Shown: positions 1,660-12,469 of the stretch, in pieces
How the letters are laid out: each line of letters opens with the position of its first letter
How positions within the stretch are numbered: the first letter of the stretch is position 1
Source of the DNA: an uncultured Actinomycetes bacterium
Lineage (GTDB): Bacteria; Actinomycetota; UBA4738; HRBIN12
Reading direction: 5' to 3'
Assembly: GCA_963704885.1 (NCBI GenBank)
Contig: CAVPIB010000013.1
Span: 1-12,469, forward strand
DNA length: 12,469 bases
The notes under the pieces: generated by a model
Databases searched by the model: none
Told to the model about the DNA's origin: nothing
Seen by the model: only the letters and a program-made list of their open reading frames with translations
Made by a program: the position numbers and the translations under genes

Positions 1660-1974
1660 ATGAGAGAACCGATCCCGTTCCTTCGAGAGGCCGCTGTAAC
1701 TATCGTGCCCCAGCTCTCGGACGAGCAGCTCGAACGCATCGGCGGCGAGCTCGCCTCGCAGAGCAACCCTTTCCTGCTGGTCAGCCGGGTGAGCGACTGC
1801 ACGGCGTTGATCCAGGGGATCCCGGTAACCGCCGAGTCGCCGCACGAAGCCGACGCGCTCACGTGGGACATCGTCCACAGCCATGTGAGCGCAGCCTTGT
1901 GCGAACCGTGGGACTGGGACACGACCGTCACCGCGATCGACGTCCGATCGGCCGACGGGGCCCTCGCCTCCTAG
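1660..1974 (+). CDS. Hypothetical acidic protein (about 104 aa)
   Basis: Open frame with coding-like G/C-ending codons fills the gap before the tRNA. No recognisable motif. The start is uncertain (1588, 1627 or 1660). Confidence 0.45.
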   Translation: MREPIPFLREAAVTIVPQLSDEQLERIGGELASQSNPFLLVSRVSDCTALIQGIPVTAESPHEADALTWDIVHSHVSAALCEPWDWDTTVTAIDVRSADGALAS

Positions 1975-2014
1975 CGCGAACCCGTAGCCGGACCTCGATA
2001 CGGAAGCGTCGCAG

Positions 2015-2086
2015 AGCCGGAGCGGGGATTCGAACCCCGGACCTACCACTTACGAGGCGGTTGCTCTACCACTGAGCTACTCCGGC
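2015..2086 (-). tRNA. tRNA-Thr(CGT), CCA not encoded
   Basis: GCCGGAG TA GCTC AGTGGTA GAGC A ACCGC CTCGTAA GTGGT AGGTC CGGGG TTCGAAT CCCCG CTCCGGC T forms a full cloverleaf with anticodon CGT and a TTCGAAT T-loop. Confidence 0.97.
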
Positions 2087-2097
2087 GGCGGCTGCCG

Positions 2098-2103
2098 AGT
2101 CTA
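2098..2103 (-). promoter_or_regulatory. Candidate -10 (TAGACT) of the tRNA-Thr gene
   Basis: TANNNT hexamer 11 nt upstream of the mature tRNA 5' end. Confidence 0.5.
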
Positions 2104-2110
2104 CCGAACG

Positions 2111-2177
2111 GGTGCTGGCACCACGGGAGGAGCGGCGGTCTGCACGGTCGTCGAGTTGAGCCTCCATCAGCGATGAT
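2111..2177 (+). promoter_or_regulatory. Candidate response-regulator boxes plus weak -10 (GATGAT) for the USP-kinase gene
   Basis: GGTGCTGGCACCAC (2111-2124) and GCGGCGGTCTGCAC (2132-2145) match GGGGGTAGCACCAC (9092-9105) and GCGGTGGTCTCCAC (9112-9125). GATGAT (2172-2177) is 7 nt before ATG 2185. Confidence 0.55.
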
Positions 2178-2184
2178 GCCCTCC

Positions 2185-4296
2185 ATGAGCTCCGGCGTAA
2201 GCGTCAACACCCAGGGGCAGGTCGGCCGTGTGATGGTGGGAACCGACCGATCGGAGACCGCCGAGCGCGCCGTCCGGTGGGCCGCCTCGTTCGCGGAGCT
2301 GTACGCCGCGGACCTCCACATCGTTCAGGTGATCCTGCCGAGCCACCCGTCTGACACCGAGTTCGGAGCCGCCGAGGCAACACGCGCTCGCGGTGCTGCC
2401 GACGAACTTCAGACCTACGCCACCCAGATCGCCGGCGAACGCGGCAAGGCCCACGTGGTGATCGACGACGACCCCGCGATGGCCATCGTGCACGCCACCG
2501 AGGAGCACTCGATCGACGTCCTGGTGGTGGGCAACGCGGGGATGGCGGGCCGCAAGGAGTTCTTGCTGGGGAACGTCCCCAACCGGATCAGCCACAATGC
2601 GCGCTGCACGGTGATCATCGTGAACACGGCGGCTGACGGACAGGCGGCCGCGACCGGCGTTTCGCGCGCACCTGCGTCGATCCGCTCAAGCGCCGTCGAG
2701 GTCGAGACCGAGCCGCACCTGGTCGCGCGCGGCACCAAGATCGCGAGCGTCTTCGCCAAGCACGGACTGAAGGAGCTGTTCGGCCGGCCCGACGAGGAGG
2801 GATCGGTCGGCAAGGTCCGTCAGGCTAAGCGCCTGCGCTCTGCCCTGGAGGAGCTGGGGCCGACGTTCGCCAAGATCGGGCAGATCCTGTCCACGCGGCC
2901 AGACCTGCTGCCCCCGGAGTTCATCCAGGAGCTGGCCACCCTGCAGGACGACGTGCCACCGCTCCCCGAGGAACAGGTGGTCCGGGTCATGGAGCAGGAG
3001 CTGGGAGTGCCGTGGGAGGACGTTTTCGATCACATCGAACCCCAGCCGTTGGCCGCGGGAACCATCGCGCAGGTGCACCGGGCGGTGCTGGCCAACGCCG
3101 AGCGAGTCGTGATCAAGGTCCAGCGCCCCGACGCCAAGGAGCAGATCGAGCAGGACCTGGCACTGCTCGAGGTCTTCGCGGAGAAGGTGAGCCACCGCCC
3201 CGGGCTCAAGCAGGTGATCGACATGGAGGCGGTGTTCATCCATCTGTCCGAATCGCTGCACCGAGAGCTGGACTTCCGCCAGGAGGCCGGGAACATGCGT
3301 CGCCTGGCGGCTGTGATCGAGCCGTTCAGCCGGCTGCGGGTTCCCGAGGTGCACGGTGATTACTCCACGTCGCGCTTGTTGGTGATGCGCGACGTCGCCG
3401 GCGGTCCCCTCTCGTCGGCCCCTGAGGGTGGCCCGCGCAGAGAGGCGGCGCGGCAGCTGCTGGAGTCGTTCTACAAGCAGATCCTGGTCGACGGCTTCTT
3501 CCACGCGGATCCGCATCCGGGGAACCTCATGTGGCAGCCCGAGGAAGAGCTCCTCTACTTCTTGGACCTGGGCATGGTCGGCGAGGTGGGCCCCGAGATG
3601 CGCGAGCAGATGATGCTGCTGCTCATGGCCTTCTGGCAGGAGGACGTGGGTTTCCTGACCGACGTATCTCTGATGCTCGCGGGCGCGATCGATCGCAGTG
3701 ATCTGGACGTCGACGCGTTCAGCGAGGAGATCGGCGAGCTGATGGCCAAGAACCGCACGGCCTCGCTCAAGGACATCCAGCTGGGACCCGTGCTGCAAGA
3801 GATGACCGAGATCTCGCTCCGACACGGGGTGCCGCTGCCTGCATCGCTCACGTTGACCGGCAAGGCGCTCGCCCAGATGCAGCTGGCCGCGGCCGAGCTG
3901 GATCCCGAGCTGGATCCGTTCGACGTGGCAGGGAGCTTCCTGATGCGCAGCGTGATGAGGGACATGGGCACCAAGTTCGACCTGAAGGCGATCTTCTACC
4001 AGACCCAGAAGTTCAAGGTGCGCGCGATGCGGGTGGTCGAGGCCGTGGAGCGCCTTATCGGCGCCAGACCGGGCCAGAAACTCGAGGTCAACTTCCGTGC
4101 TTCCACGCTTGAGACGACGATCCGGCGCGCGGGAAGACGCCTCGCCCTGGGCCTGACTGCAGGTGCCGCGATCCTGGCGACGTCGCTCTCGGCTTTGTCC
4201 GCGCGTGTCGCCGGCTGGGTACCCGCGGCGTTCGGGGTCGTGGCAGGCCTGCTCACGCTGGCGCTGGTCGTCGACCTGGTCCGGCGGCGCGACTAG
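2185..4296 (+). CDS. Fusion of an N-terminal universal stress protein domain, an ABC1/UbiB/AarF atypical kinase and C-terminal TM helices
   Basis: USP part: VMVGTDRS...AVRWA, DVLVVGNAGMAGRKEFLLGNVPNRISHNARCTVIIV. Kinase part: LGPTFAKIGQ (KxGQ), LSTRPDLLP, PLAAGTIAQVH, IKVQRP, ELDF, GFFHADPHPGN, DLGMVG. Two hydrophobic segments precede RRRD. The start could be 2173, 2176 or 2185. Confidence 0.92.
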   Translation: MSSGVSVNTQGQVGRVMVGTDRSETAERAVRWAASFAELYAADLHIVQVILPSHPSDTEFGAAEATRARGAADELQTYATQIAGERGKAHVVIDDDPAMAIVHATEEHSIDVLVVGNAGMAGRKEFLLGNVPNRISHNARCTVIIVNTAADGQAAATGVSRAPASIRSSAVEVETEPHLVARGTKIASVFAKHGLKELFGRPDEEGSVGKVRQAKRLRSALEELGPTFAKIGQILSTRPDLLPPEFIQELATLQDDVPPLPEEQVVRVMEQELGVPWEDVFDHIEPQPLAAGTIAQVHRAVLANAERVVIKVQRPDAKEQIEQDLALLEVFAEKVSHRPGLKQVIDMEAVFIHLSESLHRELDFRQEAGNMRRLAAVIEPFSRLRVPEVHGDYSTSRLLVMRDVAGGPLSSAPEGGPRREAARQLLESFYKQILVDGFFHADPHPGNLMWQPEEELLYFLDLGMVGEVGPEMREQMMLLLMAFWQEDVGFLTDVSLMLAGAIDRSDLDVDAFSEEIGELMAKNRTASLKDIQLGPVLQEMTEISLRHGVPLPASLTLTGKALAQMQLAAAELDPELDPFDVAGSFLMRSVMRDMGTKFDLKAIFYQTQKFKVRAMRVVEAVERLIGARPGQKLEVNFRASTLETTIRRAGRRLALGLTAGAAILATSLSALSARVAGWVPAAFGVVAGLLTLALVVDLVRRRD

Positions 4297-4313
4297 TCCA
4301 GCTCAGACTAGTC
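4291..4313. terminator. Hairpin between convergent genes (GACTAGTC-N7-GACTAGTC), possible bidirectional terminator
   Basis: A self-complementary 8-mer occurs twice and can form an 8-bp stem with a 7-nt loop on either strand; no U-tract. Confidence 0.35.
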
Positions 4314-4326
4314 AGCCGGCCGAAGA

Positions 4327-4527
4327 TCACGGCTCGTCGAGCTTCGCCTCCGTCCCTTTCGTGGTGATCGTCGTGGGTTCTGGCGTCGTGGCGCCGCCCT
4401 TCTTCCTCACCGAGCGCATGACGACCTTCTCGAGCACGAAGGCGATCACCGCCATGATCACGCCAACGGCCCAGCGTTCGAACCGGCGGATCCCTTTCGG
4501 CTTCTTTGTCGTCACGCGCCCGGTCAC
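4327..4527 (-). CDS. Small single-pass membrane protein (66 aa)
   Basis: The GTG start overlaps the kinase TGA (GTGA) and has GAGG upstream. Basic N-terminus, hydrophobic WAVGVIMAVIAFVL, Thr-rich tail, coding-like codon usage. Confidence 0.7.
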   Translation of the reverse strand: MTGRVTTKKPKGIRRFERWAVGVIMAVIAFVLEKVVMRSVRKKGGATTPEPTTITTKGTEAKLDEP

Positions 4528-6629
4528 GCGGGCACCTCGGCATCCGACAGACGGAGTCGCCCCTCGATCGTGGTGCCGCGTCCCGGCGACGATGTGACCA
4601 CGAGCTCGCCGTCCTGGGCGCCCAGTCGGTCGGCCATCCCCTGCAACCCGGAACCGCCGACGCTGGATACCGGATCGAAACCGCGACCATCGTCCGCAAC
4701 GATGAACGTGAGCACGCGATCGCGTTCGGCGAGCGACACGGTCACCGACGACGCGTCCGCGTACTTGGCCACGTTCTGAAGCGCCTCCAGGCAGGAGAAG
4801 TACACGGCGGCCTCGACCTCCTGCGGGTAGCGACCTATCCCGTCGGCCTCGATCTGCACCGGCAACCCACTCTTGCGGCCCTGCGCCGCGAGTGCGGCGG
4901 CGAGACCCTTGTCGGCCAGGAGCGGTGGGTAGATGCCTCTCGCTAGGTCCCGCAGGTCCTCCAATGCGGAGTTCGTCTCACCCTGGAGCTGAGCGAGCAA
5001 CTCGTGAGCTTGTGTCGCATCGCGTTCGACCAGGCCATCCGCCAGCCGCAGCTTCACCGACAGGGCCACCAACTGTTGCTGCGCGCCGTCATGGATGTTG
5101 CGCTCGAGCTTGCGACGCTCCTCGTCCTGGGCCGAGACCAGCCGGCGCTGCGCCGCCTTCAGGTCTTCGAGCCGGGCCTTGAGCTCTTCGGTCAAGCGAA
5201 CGTTCCTCAGCACCAGCCCGGCCTGGGACGCCAGGCCGGCGATCAGCTTCTCATCCGCCGCGGAGACCGGATCGCTCGCCGGCTTGCGGACGGCGAGCGC
5301 ACCCAGCAGCTCACCGCCCTGTTCGACCGGATAGACGCGGTCGGCGCCCTCGATCGATGGCATCGCGCCGTTCGCCAGAGGTATCGCCGATGCGCCGCCC
5401 GCGTCGGGTGGCCAGGCCGCCACATCGCGCAGCTCCCGGTCGACCGCGAGCCAGACGTCGGCCCGATCGGCGCCGACCCCTTCGCCCAGGATGCGGGCCA
5501 TACGAGGCAGGACGTCTTCGTCGGCGTATGCCTCCCCCACTCGCTCGGAGAACTCGGAGAGGACCTCGTACGGTGTCGCGCGCTTGCCGTACACCAAACG
5601 GTTCGCGAAGCGACCGGCGCGGCTGCGTATCGGGAAGATCAGTAACCCGATCGCCAGGCCGATCAGCACTTGCCAGGCATCTACGCCCGACCCTGAGCCG
5701 CGTCCGAGCACGATGGTCGGCAGAGCGATCGCCACCATCAGGTAGAAGGCCGTCACCGCCACGACCACCGTAGCGAAGATCACGGTCTTCTTGATCACGA
5801 CGTCAAGGTCGTACAGGTGGAACCGAAGGACAGCGATGCCGATGGACAGCGGGAACATCAGGAACGCAACACCGCCGATCACCGAACTCAACAGCGTGTC
5901 CTGGCTGGAGAAGCTGGTGCTGGTGATCGCCAGGAGCGCAGCCACGAGACCGAACACGACCCACTTGATCTGTTGGCGTTCGAGGCCTGACGACCTCCGG
6001 AAACGGAGGACCAACGAGACGATCGAGGCCCCGAAGATGGCGGGGAACAGGATGCCGATCACCGGATCCAGGTTGGGGAAACCTCCGATAGCGTCGACGT
6101 AGAAGGGGTTCTTTACCCCGACGTCGGCCGAACCCGTCAGGACCTCTTGGCCGAAGGCGAGATTCATCGCCAAGATCACGATGAACGCGGCGATGAACCA
6201 CAGCAACGGGCGCCATCTCCTCGATGGAAGGCGGCCGTCCGGGAACAGCAGCGGCAGGAGGAACACCATCAGCAGGATCCCGAACATCCACCCGGCGCTG
6301 TTCAGGAAGCCGCACACTACGACCAACCATCCCTCGGTGCCGTGCGTCACCGCGTAGGTGAACCACTCTCCGCTGAGGAAGGACAGAGCGGTGAAGAACG
6401 ACGACCACATGAGCAGAAGCCCGATGGTGTTCCGCCGGTCGCGGCTCACGATGAGCGCGCCCACAGCGCCGAACATCGAGAAAGCGATCACGTACGGGAT
6501 CTGCTCGGCAAGGGACTCGCCGTTGAGCTCGACGAGGACCATGCTGGCCGTCGCCACCACAAGGAAACCGGCGAAAGCCACCCAGGGCCACCGCGCGGGG
6601 CGCAACGACAACTCAGGAGATGACGACAA
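4524..6629 (-). CDS. Membrane sensor histidine kinase HK1 (multi-TM, GAF-like, HisKA_3, HATPase_c)
   Basis: H-box ERRKLERNIHDGAQQQL, RGIYPPLL, N-box EALQNVAKYA, G1 DDGRGFD, G2 GSGLQGM, PGRGT; about 10 hydrophobic segments. TTG start with GGAGG 6 nt upstream, overlapping the cyclase gene by 17 bp. Confidence 0.93.
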   Translation of the reverse strand: MSSSPELSLRPARWPWVAFAGFLVVATASMVLVELNGESLAEQIPYVIAFSMFGAVGALIVSRDRRNTIGLLLMWSSFFTALSFLSGEWFTYAVTHGTEGWLVVVCGFLNSAGWMFGILLMVFLLPLLFPDGRLPSRRWRPLLWFIAAFIVILAMNLAFGQEVLTGSADVGVKNPFYVDAIGGFPNLDPVIGILFPAIFGASIVSLVLRFRRSSGLERQQIKWVVFGLVAALLAITSTSFSSQDTLLSSVIGGVAFLMFPLSIGIAVLRFHLYDLDVVIKKTVIFATVVVAVTAFYLMVAIALPTIVLGRGSGSGVDAWQVLIGLAIGLLIFPIRSRAGRFANRLVYGKRATPYEVLSEFSERVGEAYADEDVLPRMARILGEGVGADRADVWLAVDRELRDVAAWPPDAGGASAIPLANGAMPSIEGADRVYPVEQGGELLGALAVRKPASDPVSAADEKLIAGLASQAGLVLRNVRLTEELKARLEDLKAAQRRLVSAQDEERRKLERNIHDGAQQQLVALSVKLRLADGLVERDATQAHELLAQLQGETNSALEDLRDLARGIYPPLLADKGLAAALAAQGRKSGLPVQIEADGIGRYPQEVEAAVYFSCLEALQNVAKYADASSVTVSLAERDRVLTFIVADDGRGFDPVSSVGGSGLQGMADRLGAQDGELVVTSSPGRGTTIEGRLRLSDAEVPA

Positions 6630-7890
6630 GGAAGACCTCCACGGGTTCCTCCCGGCCCTTCACGTACCGCGACCCGACCGGCTCGCATTCGACCTTCGGC
6701 GCCGCCGCGACCGTCGACGCGGCCGCGACGATCTCGCCGCCCTTTGCCTCGGACTGCAACCGCTGGGCGATGTTCACGGCGTCGCCCACCACCGTGTACT
6801 CGAGGCGGCCGCCCCCTCCGACCGTCCCGGCGATCACCAGACCGGTGTTCACGCCGATCCCGACCTCGAGCTCCGGAACGTCTGCGTCCCAGCCCTGCGC
6901 GTTCAGCTCCGCTTGGCGCTCTTGCATGGCGATCGCGCAGCACAGCGCCCGCTCCGCGTGATCGGATGTGGGCTCAGGAGCTCCGAAGACGACCATCACA
7001 GCATCCCCCTGGAACTTGTCGATCATGCCGCCCATCGACAGGACCACCTCCGCCATCGCGGTGAGGTGTTTGCCGACGACCGTCGCGACGACTCGCGCGG
7101 GGAGGCGTTCGGCGAGCGTCGAGAACCCTCGGATGTCCGAGAACAGGACGCTCACCTCGACCTCCTGCGGCTCGATCGCCATCTCGGGATGCGCCGCGAG
7201 CCGATCTGCCAGCTGTTGTGGGACGAACGACGCAAGCGTCTTGCGGGAGGTCGTCTGTTCCACTACCGCGGCGTGCAGGCGCTTGAACTCGTCGACGAGT
7301 CCCGAGCCTGCACCGTCGCCGGCCATCCGCTTGAACAGCGCGGTGACCTGTGAATCGACGGCCTCCTGGGTGGTCTCTAGCGTCTCTGCGATCTCGGCGT
7401 ACCCGAGGCCCTTGGCCATCATGTCGAGCAACTCGCGCTCACGCTCGACCGTGTCGCCGCGGCCCGACAGGCGCTCGGCGATCGTCGGATCCACGGTGCT
7501 GCCTCCCGCGTGAACCTCACGGATCGCACGCGCCAGCTCGTCGCCCTGCGAGATGCGGTCCTTCAAGAGGTACGCCAGGCCGCTGTGACCGCCCCCGAGC
7601 AAAGCGAGGGCGTACGCCTCGTCGTCGTGGGCGGATAGAACGACCACGCCGGTATCGGGGTGCGAGGAGCGGATCGCGTGCGCGCAATCGATCCCCTCAA
7701 GCTGGAAAGACGGCGGCATCTTGATATCGGTGACGACGACGTCGGGTGTGTGCTCCGCTGCGGTCTCCAGCAGCGAGGGCGCGTCTACCGCGACCCCGAC
7801 CACCTCGATGTCGTCGTATGAGTCCAGCAGCGCTCGGACGCCCTCGCGTACTAGGACATTGTCCTCCCCCAGCACGACCCGGATGCTCAT
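6613..7890 (-). CDS. Receiver domain, degenerate LuxR-type HTH and class III adenylate cyclase fusion
   Basis: REC: GEDN, TD55IKMP, VLS, YLLKD. HTH-like: ERERELLDMMAKGLGYAEIAETL. Cyclase: VLFSDIRGFS, IDKFQGDAVM, GIGVNTG, EYTVVGDAVNIAQRLQ, VKGREEPV. GGAGG RBS upstream. Confidence 0.92.
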   Translation of the reverse strand: MSIRVVLGEDNVLVREGVRALLDSYDDIEVVGVAVDAPSLLETAAEHTPDVVVTDIKMPPSFQLEGIDCAHAIRSSHPDTGVVVLSAHDDEAYALALLGGGHSGLAYLLKDRISQGDELARAIREVHAGGSTVDPTIAERLSGRGDTVERERELLDMMAKGLGYAEIAETLETTQEAVDSQVTALFKRMAGDGAGSGLVDEFKRLHAAVVEQTTSRKTLASFVPQQLADRLAAHPEMAIEPQEVEVSVLFSDIRGFSTLAERLPARVVATVVGKHLTAMAEVVLSMGGMIDKFQGDAVMVVFGAPEPTSDHAERALCCAIAMQERQAELNAQGWDADVPELEVGIGVNTGLVIAGTVGGGGRLEYTVVGDAVNIAQRLQSEAKGGEIVAAASTVAAAPKVECEPVGSRYVKGREEPVEVFLVVIS

Positions 7891-7922
7891 CCTGCTTCCT
7901 CCGACCGCTCGATGCCCGCGTG

Positions 7923-7928
7923 TACCAT
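7923..7928 (+). promoter_or_regulatory. Candidate -10 (TACCAT) of a leaderless response-regulator transcript
   Basis: TANNNT 6 nt before ATG 7935 with no Shine-Dalgarno sequence, the usual leaderless geometry in actinobacteria. Confidence 0.5.
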
Positions 7929-7934
7929 CCGCGC

Positions 7935-8603
7935 ATGATCCGCGTTGTGTTCGCCGAGGATAACTACCTGGTCAGGGAGGGGACGGCGGCGCTGCTGGCG
8001 ACGTCTGACCAGGTCGAGCTGGTGGGGACAGCGACCACGCGCGACGAGCTGCTGTCGGCCGTGGAGGAACACTCCCCCGACGCCGTCCTGACGGACATCC
8101 GCATGCCCCCGACGGGAACGAACGAGGGCATCGAAGCCGCGAAGACGATCCGCGCCGCGCATCCCACGATCGGCGTGGTCGTGCTTTCGCAGTTCGTCGA
8201 GGAGGACTACGCGTTCGACCTGCTGAAGGACGGCGCCGCCGGGCTCGGCTACCTCCTGAAGGAGCGGGTGGCCGACGTCGACGAGCTCGTACGGGCGCTG
8301 GGAGAGGTCGCGCGGGGCGGAAGCGTGCTCGATCCCAAGGTCGTCGAGGCGCTGGTCTCGGCGAAGGAGCGGATGGCGCACTCGCCGCTCGCGCAACTGA
8401 CGGACCGCGAACGCGAGGTGCTCTCGCACATGGCGCAAGGAGAGAACAATGCGGCCATCGCCAAGTCGCTCTTCCTCACCGAACGCGCCGTCGAGAAGCA
8501 CATCAACTCCCTCTTCCACAAGCTGGGTCTCACGGAGGAGCCCGACGTGCACCGCCGGGTGATGGCGGTGCTCGCGTTCCTCCGCGAGACCGGCGACGCC
8601 TGA
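7935..8603 (+). CDS. NarL/FixJ-family DNA-binding response regulator (REC plus LuxR HTH)
   Basis: AEDNYLVREG, TD54IRMPP, VLS, GYLLKER; HTH LTDREREVLSHMAQGENNAAIAKSLFLTERAVEKHINSLFHKLG. The real start is ATG 7935, not 7746, which would overlap the divergent gene. Confidence 0.95.
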   Translation: MIRVVFAEDNYLVREGTAALLATSDQVELVGTATTRDELLSAVEEHSPDAVLTDIRMPPTGTNEGIEAAKTIRAAHPTIGVVVLSQFVEEDYAFDLLKDGAAGLGYLLKERVADVDELVRALGEVARGGSVLDPKVVEALVSAKERMAHSPLAQLTDREREVLSHMAQGENNAAIAKSLFLTERAVEKHINSLFHKLGLTEEPDVHRRVMAVLAFLRETGDA

Positions 8604-8605
8604 CA

Positions 8606-9013
8606 TCACTGCGCTCGGCGCGTATCCACGATGAACACCGAGCAAGGCGCGTGCCGCAGGAGCATGTTCGGGACGCTGTCGCGAACGTGCCACCGTCCGC
8701 CCTGCGCCCCTCGGTTGCCCACCACGATGGTGTCGACAAGCTCCTCGGCCGCCACCTCGCAGAGGCGCTCGGCGGGCTCTCCCTGCTCCACCCGGGTGCG
8801 GGCCGCGACGTCGGGGAACCGTGTCGGGATCCGAGCCAGGTACGCGGAGGGGTCCGCCGCCCGATCGGGGTCGATGACCGCACGCAGATCGGACTCGGGC
8901 TGGACGTACAGAACCAATAGCTCGGCCCCACGGTCGCGTGCTAGCCGGGCGGCGCTCTCTACGGCCAGATCGGCCGCTGCGGATGTATCCGTTCCTACCA
9001 AGACGGTGCTCAT
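8606..9013 (-). CDS. Universal stress protein (single domain, 135 aa)
   Basis: MSTVLVGTDTS, GEPAERL, DTIVVGNRG, SVPNMLLRHAPCSVFIV; AAGGAGG RBS before ATG 9013. Confidence 0.92.
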   Translation of the reverse strand: MSTVLVGTDTSAAADLAVESAARLARDRGAELLVLYVQPESDLRAVIDPDRAADPSAYLARIPTRFPDVAARTRVEQGEPAERLCEVAAEELVDTIVVGNRGAQGGRWHVRDSVPNMLLRHAPCSVFIVDTRRAQ

Positions 9014-9039
9014 CTGGGGCCTCCTTACTCGTCGCCCCG

Positions 9040-9180
9040 AAAGTACGCTCGGGGGAGGGCGGGGACAGCCCGGCCGCCACCACCGTTCCCAGGGGGTAGC
9101 ACCACCCACCGGCGGTGGTCTCCACTCGCGAGCGAAGGCGGGTACCGCCCTTCCGGCTGCGGCTGCGGAGAGGCGACAAT
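9040..9180. promoter_or_regulatory. Divergent promoter region with four phased candidate operator boxes
   Basis: Minus-strand -10 TACTTT (9040-9045); 11-mers at 9073-9083, 9095-9105, 9115-9125 and 9138-9148 spaced 22, 20 and 23 bp; plus-strand -10-like GACAAT (9175-9180) 7 nt before ATG 9188. Confidence 0.55.
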
Positions 9181-9187
9181 CTCAGCT

Positions 9188-9328
9188 ATGACAACGACCA
9201 CAGAGGGACGGCGGCGGCCGACTTGGGCGCTCGGCGTCACCGCCTCGGTCATCGGAAGGCTCATCGATCGGAGCGAGCTGCGTCTCGGGATCCGTCATCT
9301 TCCTGTGGAAATGGAGCGCGCATCGTGA
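9188..9328 (+). CDS. Small leader ORF (46 aa) coupled to HK2
   Basis: MTTTTEGRRRPTWALGVTASVIGRLIDRSELRLGIRHLPVEMERAS; its TGA overlaps the HK2 GTG (GTGA at 9325-9328). Confidence 0.45.
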   Translation: MTTTTEGRRRPTWALGVTASVIGRLIDRSELRLGIRHLPVEMERAS

Positions 9329-11542
9329 GTCCTACGACCGCGAAACACCTTTCGCGCGCGATCATCGCGGTCGCACTAGCGATGATCGCGATCTCGCTCA
9401 TCGTCGGCGCCACGTCATCCAGGCACCAAGAGCCGGGGCGGATCTTCATAGTCGGTGATGCGTCCGTCGGTGATGGCCCGCTGGTCCACGAAGCGCTCAT
9501 CGATCGTCAGACGGAGGGCGAGACGTTCGCTATCGCGGCGGTCAACCCGCAGATCGTGCTCGGGTTGATCGTCGGTCTGCTCTGGATGATCACCGGGTCG
9601 CTGATCGTGTCCCGCCAGCCGCGCAACACCGCGGGCTGGATCTTCCTCGCGATCGGTGTTGCCCTCCCTCTCAGCGGTATGGCCTCCACGCTCGCCGTGA
9701 CGGGTGTGAAGACCGTTCCCGCCTCGGTGCCGCTGGTCGGTCTCTGGGCGGTCGTCAACGAATACAGCTTCCTTCCGGTCGTCCTGCTCCCCCTGCTCTT
9801 CCTGCTCTTCCCCGATGGGCGGCCGCCCACGCCTCGCTGGCGTTGGGCCGAGCGTGCGTTGTTCGCGGGGCTCGCGATCGCGATCGTGGGGTTCACGCTG
9901 TCCCCGGGGCCACTGAACAACCTCGTCGACTCCGGCATCCTGTACGAGAACCCGATCGGGATCCCCGCGTTCGCCGGCGTGTCCGACGCGATGACGACGA
10001 TCGGCGTCGTGCTGTGCCTCATCGCCGGCTTCTCCACGGTCTTCGCGGTCCGAGGTCGCTTCAAGCGCTCGACGGGTGAGGAACGCCAACAACTCCGCTG
10101 GCTCGTGTTCGTCGCGACGACCGCCGCGATCTTGTTCACGTTCCTCTTCGGGATCACCCTCCCCGGCGATGCCATCGGCTGGGCATTCGGAAGCTTCCCG
10201 ATCTTCGCGATCCTCTTGCTCCTCCTGGCCGTCGTGATCGCGTTCGGTGTCCCCGGCGCCTATCTGGTCGCGATCTTCCGATACGGGCTGTGGGATCTGG
10301 ACGTCGTGGTGCGTAAGACGGTCGTGTACGTGGTGCTGGCCATCCTGCTGCTCGTTACGGGGTTCGCGTTCGTGTGGTTCGTGACCGGACTGTTCGCCTC
10401 GGCTGCGGCGCCGAACGGGAAGGTCGATCTGCTGTCCGGTGTGGTGATCGGTCTCTTGTTCTGGCCGCTCCGGAAGATCGCGGTCAAGATCGCAGATCGG
10501 TTCGTCTACGGAGGGCGAGCGACCCCGTACGAAGTGTTGACCTCGTTCGCGGGGCGCGTCGGCGAGACCTATTCGACGGACGACATCCTGCCTCGGATGG
10601 TGCAGGTGCTGGCGAGGGGGGTCGGCGCAGAAGGCGCCACGGTGTGGCTCCGGGTCGGGAACCAGCTGCGCCCCACGATGACATGGCCTGACGACGTAGC
10701 GAGACCGGCGTCGGTGAGCCTGTTAGGCGACACGTTTCCCGCGATCCCCGATCAGCACGCGGCCGAGGTTCGCGATCAGGGCGAGCTCTTGGGTGCGCTC
10801 TCAGTGGTCATGCCGGCCTCGGATCCCATGACGCCGGGGAGGGAACGACTCGTCCGCGACCTCGCGTCGCAGGCCGGCCTGGTGCTTCGCAACGTGCGGT
10901 TGATCGAGGAGCTCCGCGCGTCGAGACAACGGCTGGTTGCCGCTCAGGACGAGGAGCGGCGCAAGCTCGAACGCAACATCCATGATGGAGCGCAGCAACA
11001 ACTCGTGGCGCTGGCCGTGAAGCTCCGACTGGCGGACACGTTGATGGAACGCGACCCGACGAAGGCGCATGCGCTGATGACGCAGCTCCAAGGAGAGACG
11101 CACGGGGCCCTCGAAGATCTCCGCGACCTGGCGCGTGGGATCTATCCGCCGCTGCTCGCGGACAAGGGATTGCCCACCGCGCTCGAGGCCCAGGCGAGGA
11201 AGGCCGCGGTGCCCACCACGGTGAGCGCGGATGGGATCGGCGCGATACGCGCAAGACGTCGAGGCCGCGGTCTACTTCTCCTGCCTGGAGGCGATGAGCA
11301 ACGTGGCGAAGTACGCGGAGGCAACCGAAGCCTCCGTTGGCCTCACGCAGGCAGACGGTCACCTCACCTTCGTCGTGGCGGACGACGGGCGGGGGTTCGA
11401 TCCGCATGCCACCGGCTACGGAACGGGGCTGCAGGGGATCGCGGACCGGCTCGATGCGATCGGTGGAACGCTGTCGGTCGTCAGTCGAATTGGGGCTGGA
11501 ACGACGATCACCGGCTCCATTCCGGCGGTAGCGGAACGATGA
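9325..11542 (+). CDS. Membrane sensor histidine kinase HK2 (paralog of HK1) with a +1 frameshift at about 11241-11242 (sequencing error or pseudogene)
   Basis: Hand translation from GTG 9325 is stop-free: RNTAGW, LFPDGRPPTPRWR, ERQQLRW, LWDLDVVVRKT, RATPYEVL, ERRKLERNIHDGAQQQL (His at 10981), RGIYPPLL, ADGIG. The HATPase (RYAQDVEAAVYFSCLEAMSNVAKYA, DDGRGFD, GTGLQG) continues one base later to TGA 11542. Absent from the ORF track. Confidence 0.9.
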
Positions 11543-12469
11543 GGGCGAGCCGCTGGACCCGTTGGCTGGCGCTCGGGATCTTGCTCGCGACGCTGGTGCT
11601 GATGGCGCTCGCGTTCGTCCTGTGGATCGGCAACCCGGTGAACGAAGGGGTCGACCTGCCGTTCGCCCTCGGCCTGGGGGTCGGCATGCTGGCGTTCGGC
11701 ACGATCGGTGCGATCCTCGCGACCCAGGCACCGAGCAACCCGATCGGATGGCTGTATGAGCTCGCCGCGTTCGGGGTCGTCCTCGCCGTGGCGACGGAGC
11801 AGTACGCGATCCGAGGGCTCGAGGACCTGACCTCGCTGCCGGCCGTTCCCTACGCCTATTGGCTGAACGCGGCGGTCACTCCCATAGCGATCTCGCTCAT
11901 CCCCATCGCGCTCGTGCTCTTCCCCGACGGCCACCTCCTCTCTCGACGCTGGCGTCCCATCCTCTGGGCGCTGCTGGCCGCCGCCGTGGTGGGGTCGTTC
12001 GCGTCGGCGTTCCTCGACGAGGTGTTTCCGGTCGGCGGCGTCGCGTACGTGAAGAACCCGTTCAGCATCGGATCGGGAGGTACCGACCGTCTGTGGCCCT
12101 TCCTGGCCAGCCTGCTCCTCGTGGGGATCATGGGATCGCTCTCGTCGGTGGTGATCCGATACCGCAGGTCCGAGGAAGAACAACGCCAGCAGCTCCGGTG
12201 GCTGGCAGCCGCCGTGCTTGTCATCGGCGTCGCGGGTGTCGTCGCGTTCGCGATCGGCTTCCTGCCGCTCCCCACCGATGTGAGCGCGATCCTGAGCGCC
12301 ATAGCGGGGTATGCCATGTTGGTCGCCGCAACGATCGGGCTCCCCGCCGCGACAGCCGTGGCGATCCTGCGGTACCACCTCTACGACCTCGACCTGGTCG
12401 TGAAGAAGACGGTCGTGTTCACGATCGTGGCGGTGTTCCTCACCGGCCTCTACCTCGCGGCTCTGGCGC
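11539..12469 (+). CDS. Third paralogous multi-TM sensor, probably histidine kinase HK3; partial at the right edge
   Basis: ATG 11539 overlaps the HK2 TGA (ATGA). MRASRWTRWLALG..., NPIGW, LFPDGHLLSRRWRP, VKNPF, QRQQLRW, RYHLYDLDLVVKKTV match HK1 and HK2. The kinase core lies outside the window. Confidence 0.85.
   Translation, partial: MRASRWTRWLALGILLATLVLMALAFVLWIGNPVNEGVDLPFALGLGVGMLAFGTIGAILATQAPSNPIGWLYELAAFGVVLAVATEQYAIRGLEDLTSLPAVPYAYWLNAAVTPIAISLIPIALVLFPDGHLLSRRWRPILWALLAAAVVGSFASAFLDEVFPVGGVAYVKNPFSIGSGGTDRLWPFLASLLLVGIMGSLSSVVIRYRRSEEEQRQQLRWLAAAVLVIGVAGVVAFAIGFLPLPTDVSAILSAIAGYAMLVAATIGLPAATAVAILRYHLYDLDLVVKKTVVFTIVAVFLTGLYLAALA

Follow-up and report, generated by a model that had tools for sequence, protein, structure and literature searches.

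UbiB/COQ8 proteins and universal stress proteins (USPs) are both ancient and widespread families, and their biochemical roles are still debated. In the window analysed here, i.e. the 12,469 nucleotides of contig CAVPIB010000013.1 (NCBI GenBank assembly GCA_963704885.1) from an uncultured Actinomycetes bacterium, a single gene encodes a USP domain followed by an atypical kinase of the ABC1/UbiB family, hereafter called USP-UbiB. This raises the questions of whether the fusion is genuine, how widely it occurs and what a USP might do on a UbiB-type ATPase. The fusion is a real, intact gene and not an artefact, and genes built in this way occur frequently within a single group of uncultured soil actinobacteria. 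With regard to function, we favor a nucleotide-sensing USP module that would be tethered to a membrane UbiB-type ATPase handling menaquinone or other prenyl lipids, a reading to which we assign a probability of roughly 0.55. A lineage in which both proteins are fused or directly adjacent provides a natural handle on the regulation of the UbiB ATPase and on the effect of a USP on its partner.

Domain layout and conserved residues of USP-UbiB

A preliminary description, made from the DNA letters alone, had proposed that USP, linker and UbiB/ABC1 kinase form one continuous in-frame open reading frame (ORF). This is borne out by the translation, which contains every motif named there, and by significant matches to both Pfam domains. 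The features of the gene are the following:

2173..4296, plus strand: whole USP-UbiB gene, 707 residues plus stop, one continuous frame in the ORF listing
2227..2622, plus strand: USP domain, residues 19-150 (Pfam Usp, E 8.5e-24; five-stranded alpha/beta fold in the AlphaFold2 model)
2530..2574, plus strand: USP nucleotide-loop motif G120-N-A-G123-x9-G133-N134, with Asn in place of the canonical Ser/Thr
2635..2709, plus strand: Ala/Ser-rich flexible linker, residues 155-179 (predicted local distance difference test, pLDDT, <50; gappy alignment columns)
2674..2674, plus strand: site of a 1-nt insertion inside the linker of a sister copy on contig C1, absent in the window (C1 versus window comparison)
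2713..2940, plus strand: UbiB N-terminal extension (PF27536 UbiB_N region), residues about 181-256 (precomputed Pfam)
2872..2883, plus strand: KxGQ motif K234-I-G236-Q237 (KIGQ, 234-237), in which K234, G236 and Q237 are invariant in 21 sequences
2941..3648, plus strand: ABC1 atypical kinase-like core, residues 257-492 (Pfam ABC1, E 1.2e-63; fold match to COQ8A)
3502..3525, plus strand: HADPHPGN catalytic loop, residues 444-451, in invariant columns
4102..4281, plus strand: two C-terminal hydrophobic helices, residues 644-675 and 682-703 (helices in the AlphaFold2 model; hydrophobic sequence)

Position 2185 is the third in-frame ATG (Met5), about 15 residues ahead of RVMVGTD, and it is the start in best agreement with the relatives, which begin near Met5 in the alignment. 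The Usp profile (PF00582) matches residues 19-150 with 85 bits against a gathering cut-off of 24, and the ABC1 profile (PF03109) matches residues 257-492 with 215 bits against a cut-off of 22.9; judged by these scores, both matches lie far beyond chance. Membership in the USP family is indicated by the score above the gathering cut-off together with the five-stranded alpha/beta fold (strands at 19-24, 47-54, 91-97, 116-120 and 146-150 in the model), and VGTD (22-25) and LLGNVP (131-136) are further USP motifs in the translation. The UbiB family is defined by an Ala-rich loop that replaces the Gly-rich loop, a beta3 Lys, an alphaC Glu, the HxDxHxGN motif and a metal-binding Asp. In addition to HADPHPGN, the core of USP-UbiB displays the Ala-rich loop AAGTIAQ (294-300), K315, E365 and D465. 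Together with the ABC1 score and the KxGQ extension, these catalytic landmarks, all invariant or nearly so, assign the protein to the UbiB/ABC1 family by sequence.

In an alignment of 21 fused sequences with 40-86% identity, the invariant residues of the kinase part are K234/G236/Q237, A294/G296, K315, E365, H444-N451 and D465. Those of the USP part are T24, D25, S27, G120, N121, G123, N134, N137, R138 and H141, which indicates that the USP pocket is under constraint.

The AlphaFold2 model, built on 21 relatives, has a mean pLDDT of 74.4 and a predicted TM-score (pTM) of 0.56. It comprises the five-stranded USP, a disordered linker, a confident kinase-like core and two long C-terminal helices, which are read as a putative, possibly transmembrane, membrane anchor. 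C-terminal membrane helices are likewise found in bacterial UbiB. The Ala/Ser-rich linker (AADGQAAATGVSRAPASIRSSAVEVETE, about residues 153-180) contains no stop or frame change in the window, and its length and sequence vary among the aligned relatives. Because its pLDDT is below 50 and the pTM of the whole model is 0.56, the linker is predicted to be a flexible tether. In Foldseek searches, the kinase part matched COQ8A (TM 0.72-0.75), MSMEG_1954 and Rv3197, while the N-terminal part matched USPs (TM 0.70-0.76), the cAMP-bound (cyclic AMP) MSMEG_3811 (5ahw) first and then TeaD. A complex prediction of the USP (residues 15-160) with the kinase (residues 176-660), with alignments for both, gave a score of 0.00, which counts neither for nor against an association.

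Integrity and distribution of fused and split forms

The window corresponds to one complete contig of 12.5 kb (C13), and the assembly, with 20 contigs and 3.0 Mb in total, contains the locus two more times. C1:21577-34040 is 95.6% identical to the window over its full length, and contig C12 is 89.9% identical, with a match that covers the window from position 1533 onward only. The three near-identical copies of 11-12.5 kb are probably strain variants that were binned together. A break in the linker, named in the preliminary description as the point at which the fusion might fail, is absent from the window and from C12, which encodes an intact 707-residue protein of 96% identity, but it is present in C1. 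Here, the 1-nt insertion at 2674 splits the gene into a 218-residue USP ORF (P0271) and a truncated kinase ORF. The only possible start of the latter is a TTG downstream of residues 176-221, which are out of frame and contain the invariant R186 and the nearly invariant P181, I190, V193, L202 and F203 of the family. As these conserved residues are lost from the frame, C1 is considered a damaged or mis-assembled copy.

It could be argued that an assembly or frameshift error merged two adjacent genes into USP-UbiB, because the C1 allele reads as two ORFs through a single nucleotide in the linker, because split arrangements are present in one family (f15, see below) and because many USP fragments of 160-190 residues are found on long contigs. 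However, the fused frame is intact in C13, in C12, in 29 sampled genomes and in all listed database relatives, and a genuine two-gene version of the C1 type would have to begin its kinase at a TTG beyond conserved residues. We therefore regard a merging error as extremely improbable. The public sequencing runs add little: the best one contains a fraction of 0.09 of the sampled words, no RNA run is among those listed, and the contigs obtained from three runs are short, derive from relatives and do not usefully span position 2674. Two genomes of the same family carry a USP-UbiB gene that is broken by frameshifts around residues 245 and 415, both inside the part encoding the kinase (L148, G321:C1:82600-84900; L149, G183:C1:1976100-1978500). 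Both assemblies consist of very few contigs, and the breaks may be assembly indels or pseudogenes.

The rarity that the preliminary description implied was not confirmed. Usp, ABC1 and UbiB_N are combined in 120 of 120 listed 90%-identity clusters (77-96% identical), and Usp and ABC1 in 119 of the 120 listed clusters around P0128, the most divergent member. Among 244 relatives in GTDB species genomes, 80 loci were kept, and in all 80 the match runs from about residue 5-17 to about residue 700 or is cut by a contig end. The ESM Atlas contains three clusters with this architecture (115, 73 and 85 members). The architecture has also been in print since 2005, when a survey listed, in the part of its text available to us, an ABC1 kinase of Nitrosomonas europaea with an N-terminal Usp domain (PMC1262709). 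NCBI names the members "AarF/UbiB family protein" or "bifunctional universal stress/protein kinase family protein", and full-text literature searches retrieved no functional study of the architecture. The architecture is thus known and catalogued; new here are the pairing of split and fused forms, the subtype signature, the menaquinone-only host and the linker-frameshift allele.

Within the phylum, the distribution was determined in a sample of 400 evenly drawn Actinomycetota genomes. The intact fusion, defined as a stop-free match from residue <=17 to >=704, is present in 29 of them, including the unpublished G343 and G088. Three more contain a fusion that is broken or divided, by the kinase-domain frameshifts of G321 and G183 and by a distribution over two contigs in G235, and 11 encode USP and kinase as separate genes. 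Families that contain the fused form are the window's own (f1; 20 of 22 with a match), the others of the same order, and f15, f46 and f76. The named records of relatives are uncultured metagenome-assembled genomes (MAGs) labelled Actinomycetota, Actinomycetes or Actinobacteria, with the exception of one Solirubrobacterales, one Acidimicrobiaceae and one Planctomycetaceae. A spread across phyla, suggested by the labels Nitrospira, Methylocaldum, Methylocella and Polynucleobacter, was not accepted, as these sequences are 63-74% identical to the USP domain of the window and reside, with one exception, on binned contigs of 1-6 kb. Records with odd-phylum labels (P0317, P0324, P0331, P0370, P0382 and P0389) all stem from short contigs, except for P0331, a partial protein on a 30-kb contig; they are probably mis-binned contigs of the same actinobacterial clade.

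Among 1.84 billion representatives, only few full-length fused proteins were recovered (P0121, P0123 and P0128 with 69%, 49% and 42% identity), followed by ordinary UbiBs of about 550 residues with 31-39% identity, whose alignments do not begin before residue ~185-220 of the query. As a control, 20 loci with an ordinary UbiB were taken from further families of the phylum, and none of them has a USP within 1.5 kb upstream. Both results agree with the earlier statement that bacterial UbiBs usually lack an N-terminal module. Matches that appeared to read through from query residue 132-165 in plain UbiB genes were rejected as low-complexity artefacts on the same count (USP in 0 of 20).

The split form occurs in 11 genomes, all of family f15, and consists of a USP gene of 131-156 residues followed by a kinase ORF of 550-680 residues; the USP gene ends 3-10 nt ahead of the kinase ORF or overlaps its start. 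The match table had suggested kinase-only orthologues in this family, a reading that was discarded after analysis of ORFs and hidden Markov models had revealed a separate upstream USP gene in all of these 11 genomes. Fused and split USPs share the signature (I/V)xGNxGMxxRKxFL(L/M)xN(V/I)PNRxSH...CTVIIV(N/D)T, which is missing from six other USP domains of the window's genome, including the stand-alone USP encoded at 8606-9109. Hence, one specific subtype of USP accompanies one specific clade of UbiB, either fused to it or directly upstream, and this argues, by the logic of gene fusion, that USP and kinase parts work together in a functional and probably also physical partnership. In a kinase tree of 48 rows, obtained by a quick search, 20 fused sequences form one clade (SH-like approximate likelihood ratio 95) and two split ones form their own clade beside it. 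The fused P0123 and P0128, and also P0143, fall outside the main clade, and the order of the groups is not resolved. Outside the window's order, no conserved neighbor emerged from eight loci with 49 ORFs; the sole common item is a CAP-domain gene downstream of the kinase in two split loci (L037, 8725-9603, minus strand; L038, 10123-12000, minus strand). The genes upstream of the USP differ between the two, being a CDP-alcohol phosphatidyltransferase gene in one and an ORF without Pfam match in the other.

A putative nucleotide sensor on a predicted membrane ATPase

The genome that contains the window is 97% complete and encodes MenA (209 bits, cut-off 102), while MqnA/D were not found by profile search. 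Ubiquinone-specific enzymes remained below their cut-offs, with 53 bits for the best UbiG match (cut-off 103) and 30 bits for the best Ubi hydroxylase match (cut-off 225), and these sub-threshold matches are methyltransferases and flavoproteins. A second full-length ABC1 match is absent from the genome. From this gene content, the host is a producer of menaquinone and not of ubiquinone, with USP-UbiB as its only full-length UbiB-family gene. The label "ubiquinone biosynthesis protein" is therefore wrong for USP-UbiB. The equivalog cut-offs for UbiB are likewise not reached (TIGR01982, 326.4 versus 487.55 bits; NF003404, 260.2 versus 667 bits).

In the model that we prefer, USP-UbiB would be a membrane-anchored, UbiB-family atypical kinase-like ATPase that carries a dedicated USP regulatory module on a flexible N-terminal tether of 25 residues. 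The USP pocket would bind an adenine nucleotide, either ATP, ADP, AMP or possibly cAMP, and the domain would probably dimerise. Occupancy of the pocket could then affect the neighboring KxGQ/N-terminal domain, either in its gating of the active site or in its contact with the membrane, and in this way the energy or stress state of the cell might set how prenylquinone (menaquinone) or other membrane-lipid intermediates are handled at the expense of ATP. The lipid part of this proposal is based on the analogy to COQ8 as an ATPase-gated lipid chaperone, in which the KxGQ domain also covers the cleft. According to the available parts of the respective reports, cardiolipin membranes and phenols stimulate the ATPase of COQ8, the N-terminal KxGQ domain of COQ8 contacts the membrane (bioRxiv 10.1101/149823), and binding and extraction of quinone intermediates are ATP-gated (bioRxiv 10.64898/2026.02.03.703536). 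The USP tether immediately precedes the helices at the N-terminus of the KxGQ domain, where a regulator that acts on gating or on membrane contact would be naturally positioned.

Several observations weigh against this model. AlphaFold places the USP on the kinase without confidence (pTM 0.56). A quinone or lipid gene is nowhere a conserved neighbor of USP-UbiB. Rv3197, the closest actinobacterial relative with a solved structure, has been described as an ATPase that binds macrolides. Furthermore, the motif G-2x-G-9x-G-(S/T) of the ATP-binding, MJ0577-type subclass, as given in the available text of PMC10003552, is departed from, as residue 134 is always Asn and the third Gly is replaced by Ser, Ala or Asp in some relatives. 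Nucleotide binding by the USP half is therefore plausible from its sequence, but not assured.

The alternatives to be weighed against the preferred model concern the USP half and, in one case, the genes that adjoin USP-UbiB in the window:

2014..2086, minus strand: tRNA-Thr(CGT), 86 nt upstream of the USP-UbiB ORF; in C1, too, this tRNA lies ahead of the gene
4524..6629, minus strand: histidine kinase (HisKA_3/HATPase_c), in convergent orientation to USP-UbiB
6613..7890, minus strand: fusion of a response regulator and a class III nucleotide cyclase (Pfam REC, weak GerE with E 2.3e-4, Guanylate_cyc)
7887..8603, plus strand: NarL/LuxR-type response regulator (Pfam REC and GerE)
8606..9109, minus strand: stand-alone USP paralogue of 167 residues and of a different subtype (GNRGAQGGRWHVRDSVP), flanked by the genes for the NarL-type regulator and for the second histidine kinase
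9115..12468, plus strand: second HisKA_3 kinase with a weak GAF match (Pfam)

The departure from the canonical motif also speaks for the possibility that the USP no longer senses a small molecule. Its role would then be confined to dimerisation or scaffolding, or it would be a substrate phosphorylated in cis by the kinase-like domain. The beta5 and alpha4 elements of USPs form their usual dimer surface, and in the fused proteins these elements (CTVIIVNT and PNRISH) are conserved as strongly as the loops. In addition, some USPs bind no ATP and exist as dimers, as stated in the available text of PMC10003552. Yet the same text describes a USP without the typical motif (4R2L) that nevertheless binds ATP in the same position, and G120, G123, D25 and S27, whose loops border the nucleotide pocket in USPs of known structure, are invariant here. 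The phosphorylation variant also fits poorly with the present view of UbiB-family proteins as ATPases rather than protein kinases, as expressed in the accessible parts of bioRxiv 10.1101/149823 and 10.64898/2026.02.03.703536. We consider a purely structural or substrate role unlikely.

A more specific proposal is that the USP is an Rv1636-like cAMP binder and that cAMP from the neighboring response regulator-cyclase switches the UbiB ATPase. The likeness to Rv1636 had been noted in the preliminary description and holds in part: Rv1636 (1tq8) is the best single-domain match of the USP by sequence in the PDB (E 1.5e-10), and the best USP fold match found by Foldseek is MSMEG_3811 with bound cAMP (5ahw, E 1.5e-6, 30% identity). 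The hydrogen-bond contacts to cAMP in 5AHW, reported in the available text of PMC8126637 as G10, S14, S16, A40, G114, V116 and T146, map to G23, S27, T29, V53, G120, A122 and T152, and all seven are identical or conservatively replaced in the window protein. Across the 21 fused sequences, no exchange is seen at S27 and G120, and T152 is nearly invariant. By contrast, the equivalent of Gly10 is not conserved, being Ala in 10 of the 21 fused sequences and Thr in 11 of 11 split relatives, and a G10T exchange lowers cAMP binding in Rv1636 (PMC11107214, available text). The motifs on which the likeness had been founded are generic to nucleotide-binding USPs; the same residues occur in ATP-binding members, and TeaD (3hgm) scores nearly as well. 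As far as the available text of PMC11107214 goes, Rv1636-like binders occur only in the three genera Mycobacterium, Corynebacterium and Nocardia, whereas the USP studied here is a domain of a 707-residue protein and not a stand-alone protein, and it comes from uncultured Actinomycetota MAGs. The genomic evidence is similarly divided. The cyclase gene with its histidine kinase adjoins USP-UbiB, within an 18-kb locus, in 12 of 14 loci from the same order, and of the 43 genomes in which a UbiB is associated with a USP, 34 contain a full-length cyclase orthologue (E <= 1e-70), versus 16 of 357 others (counts that include the unpublished G343, G088, G120 and G148). However, the adjacency is found in 0 of 6 loci outside the order, the cyclase is on other contigs in the split genomes, and the co-occurrence is confounded by kinship, since shared ancestry alone would give as much. 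The cyclase operon is also convergent with USP-UbiB, and thus the two are not co-transcribed. The link to the neighboring cyclase follows the clade, and a switch by its cAMP appears quite unlikely to us.

The nucleotide-sensing model can be extended to a bolder and rather improbable form, in which the UbiB-associated USPs, whether fused or encoded by the gene just upstream, are a distinct subfamily (GNxGMxxRKxFLxN-PNRxSH) and act in menaquinone-only bacteria as a small-molecule sensor dedicated to a lipid-chaperone ATPase of the UbiB type. Within the order of the window, such a sensor might answer to cAMP from the adjacent two-component cyclase and throttle quinone supply on entry into dormancy. 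If true, a natural allosteric regulator would become known for the first time for any UbiB-family protein, and a USP would have a concrete biochemical job.

Regulatory surroundings and relation to known systems

The layout of regulators and USP in the window resembles the arrangement of DosR/DosS/USP loci. The DosR-box-like palindrome GGGACN4GTCCC gave 8 matches against 16 expected and none of them is upstream of USP-UbiB, and a scan of 1900-4700 detected no sigma-70 promoter. The first ~190 residues of the cyclase (6613-7890) share 42-53% identity with regulators of the NarL type from all over the phylum, and its full-length orthologues are mostly confined to clades with USP-UbiB. The genome contains 14 Usp matches in total, several of which are arranged in tandem on contig C7. 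The HATPase_c domain of the second HisKA_3 kinase (ORF 11231-11542, E 1.7e-10) is not in frame with the large ORF of this gene. Compared with both C1 and C12, the window contains one additional base at 11238, and C1 has one additional base at 11098; the gene looks frameshifted, or the assembly contains indel errors.

What is gained by the analysis of this locus is a testable hypothesis and a cleaner annotation rather than a new kind of system. Among characterized proteins, USP-UbiB is comparable to E. coli UbiB and to yeast and human COQ8 (ADCK3/4), with which it shares the ABC1 domain, the KxGQ extension, the Ala-rich loop, HxDxHxGN, DxG and the COQ8A fold. It differs from UbiB proper by the additional N-terminal USP and by the low identity to ordinary 550-residue UbiBs given above. 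The best PDB sequence matches of the kinase part are from the same phylum, namely Rv3197 (MABP-1, a macrolide-binding ATPase; E 2.7e-30) and MSMEG_1954 (E 2.5e-27). These matches are confined to the kinase core, the chains of 439-452 residues lack a USP, and the NCBIfam profile for MABP-1 yields 106 bits against a cut-off of 800. On the USP side, Rv1636 and MSMEG_3811 are the nearest solved single-domain proteins by sequence and fold, at an identity of roughly a third (28-30% by Foldseek). They are free, abundant single-domain proteins, in contrast to the domain of a 707-residue protein with Asn for the motif Ser that is described here.

Fusions of a USP to a kinase are also found elsewhere, among them KdpD, whose USP binds c-di-AMP in S. 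aureus, and USP-Ser/Thr kinases of plants and rhizobia. These proteins follow the same logic of a USP combined with a kinase output (PMC1262709; PMC4686210), although KdpD, unlike USP-UbiB, is a histidine kinase and none of the listed fusions belongs to the clade of the window protein. The same order of an N-terminal Usp and a following ABC1 domain is that of the Nitrosomonas europaea kinase, which is catalogued only and known here by its description in the available text of PMC1262709.

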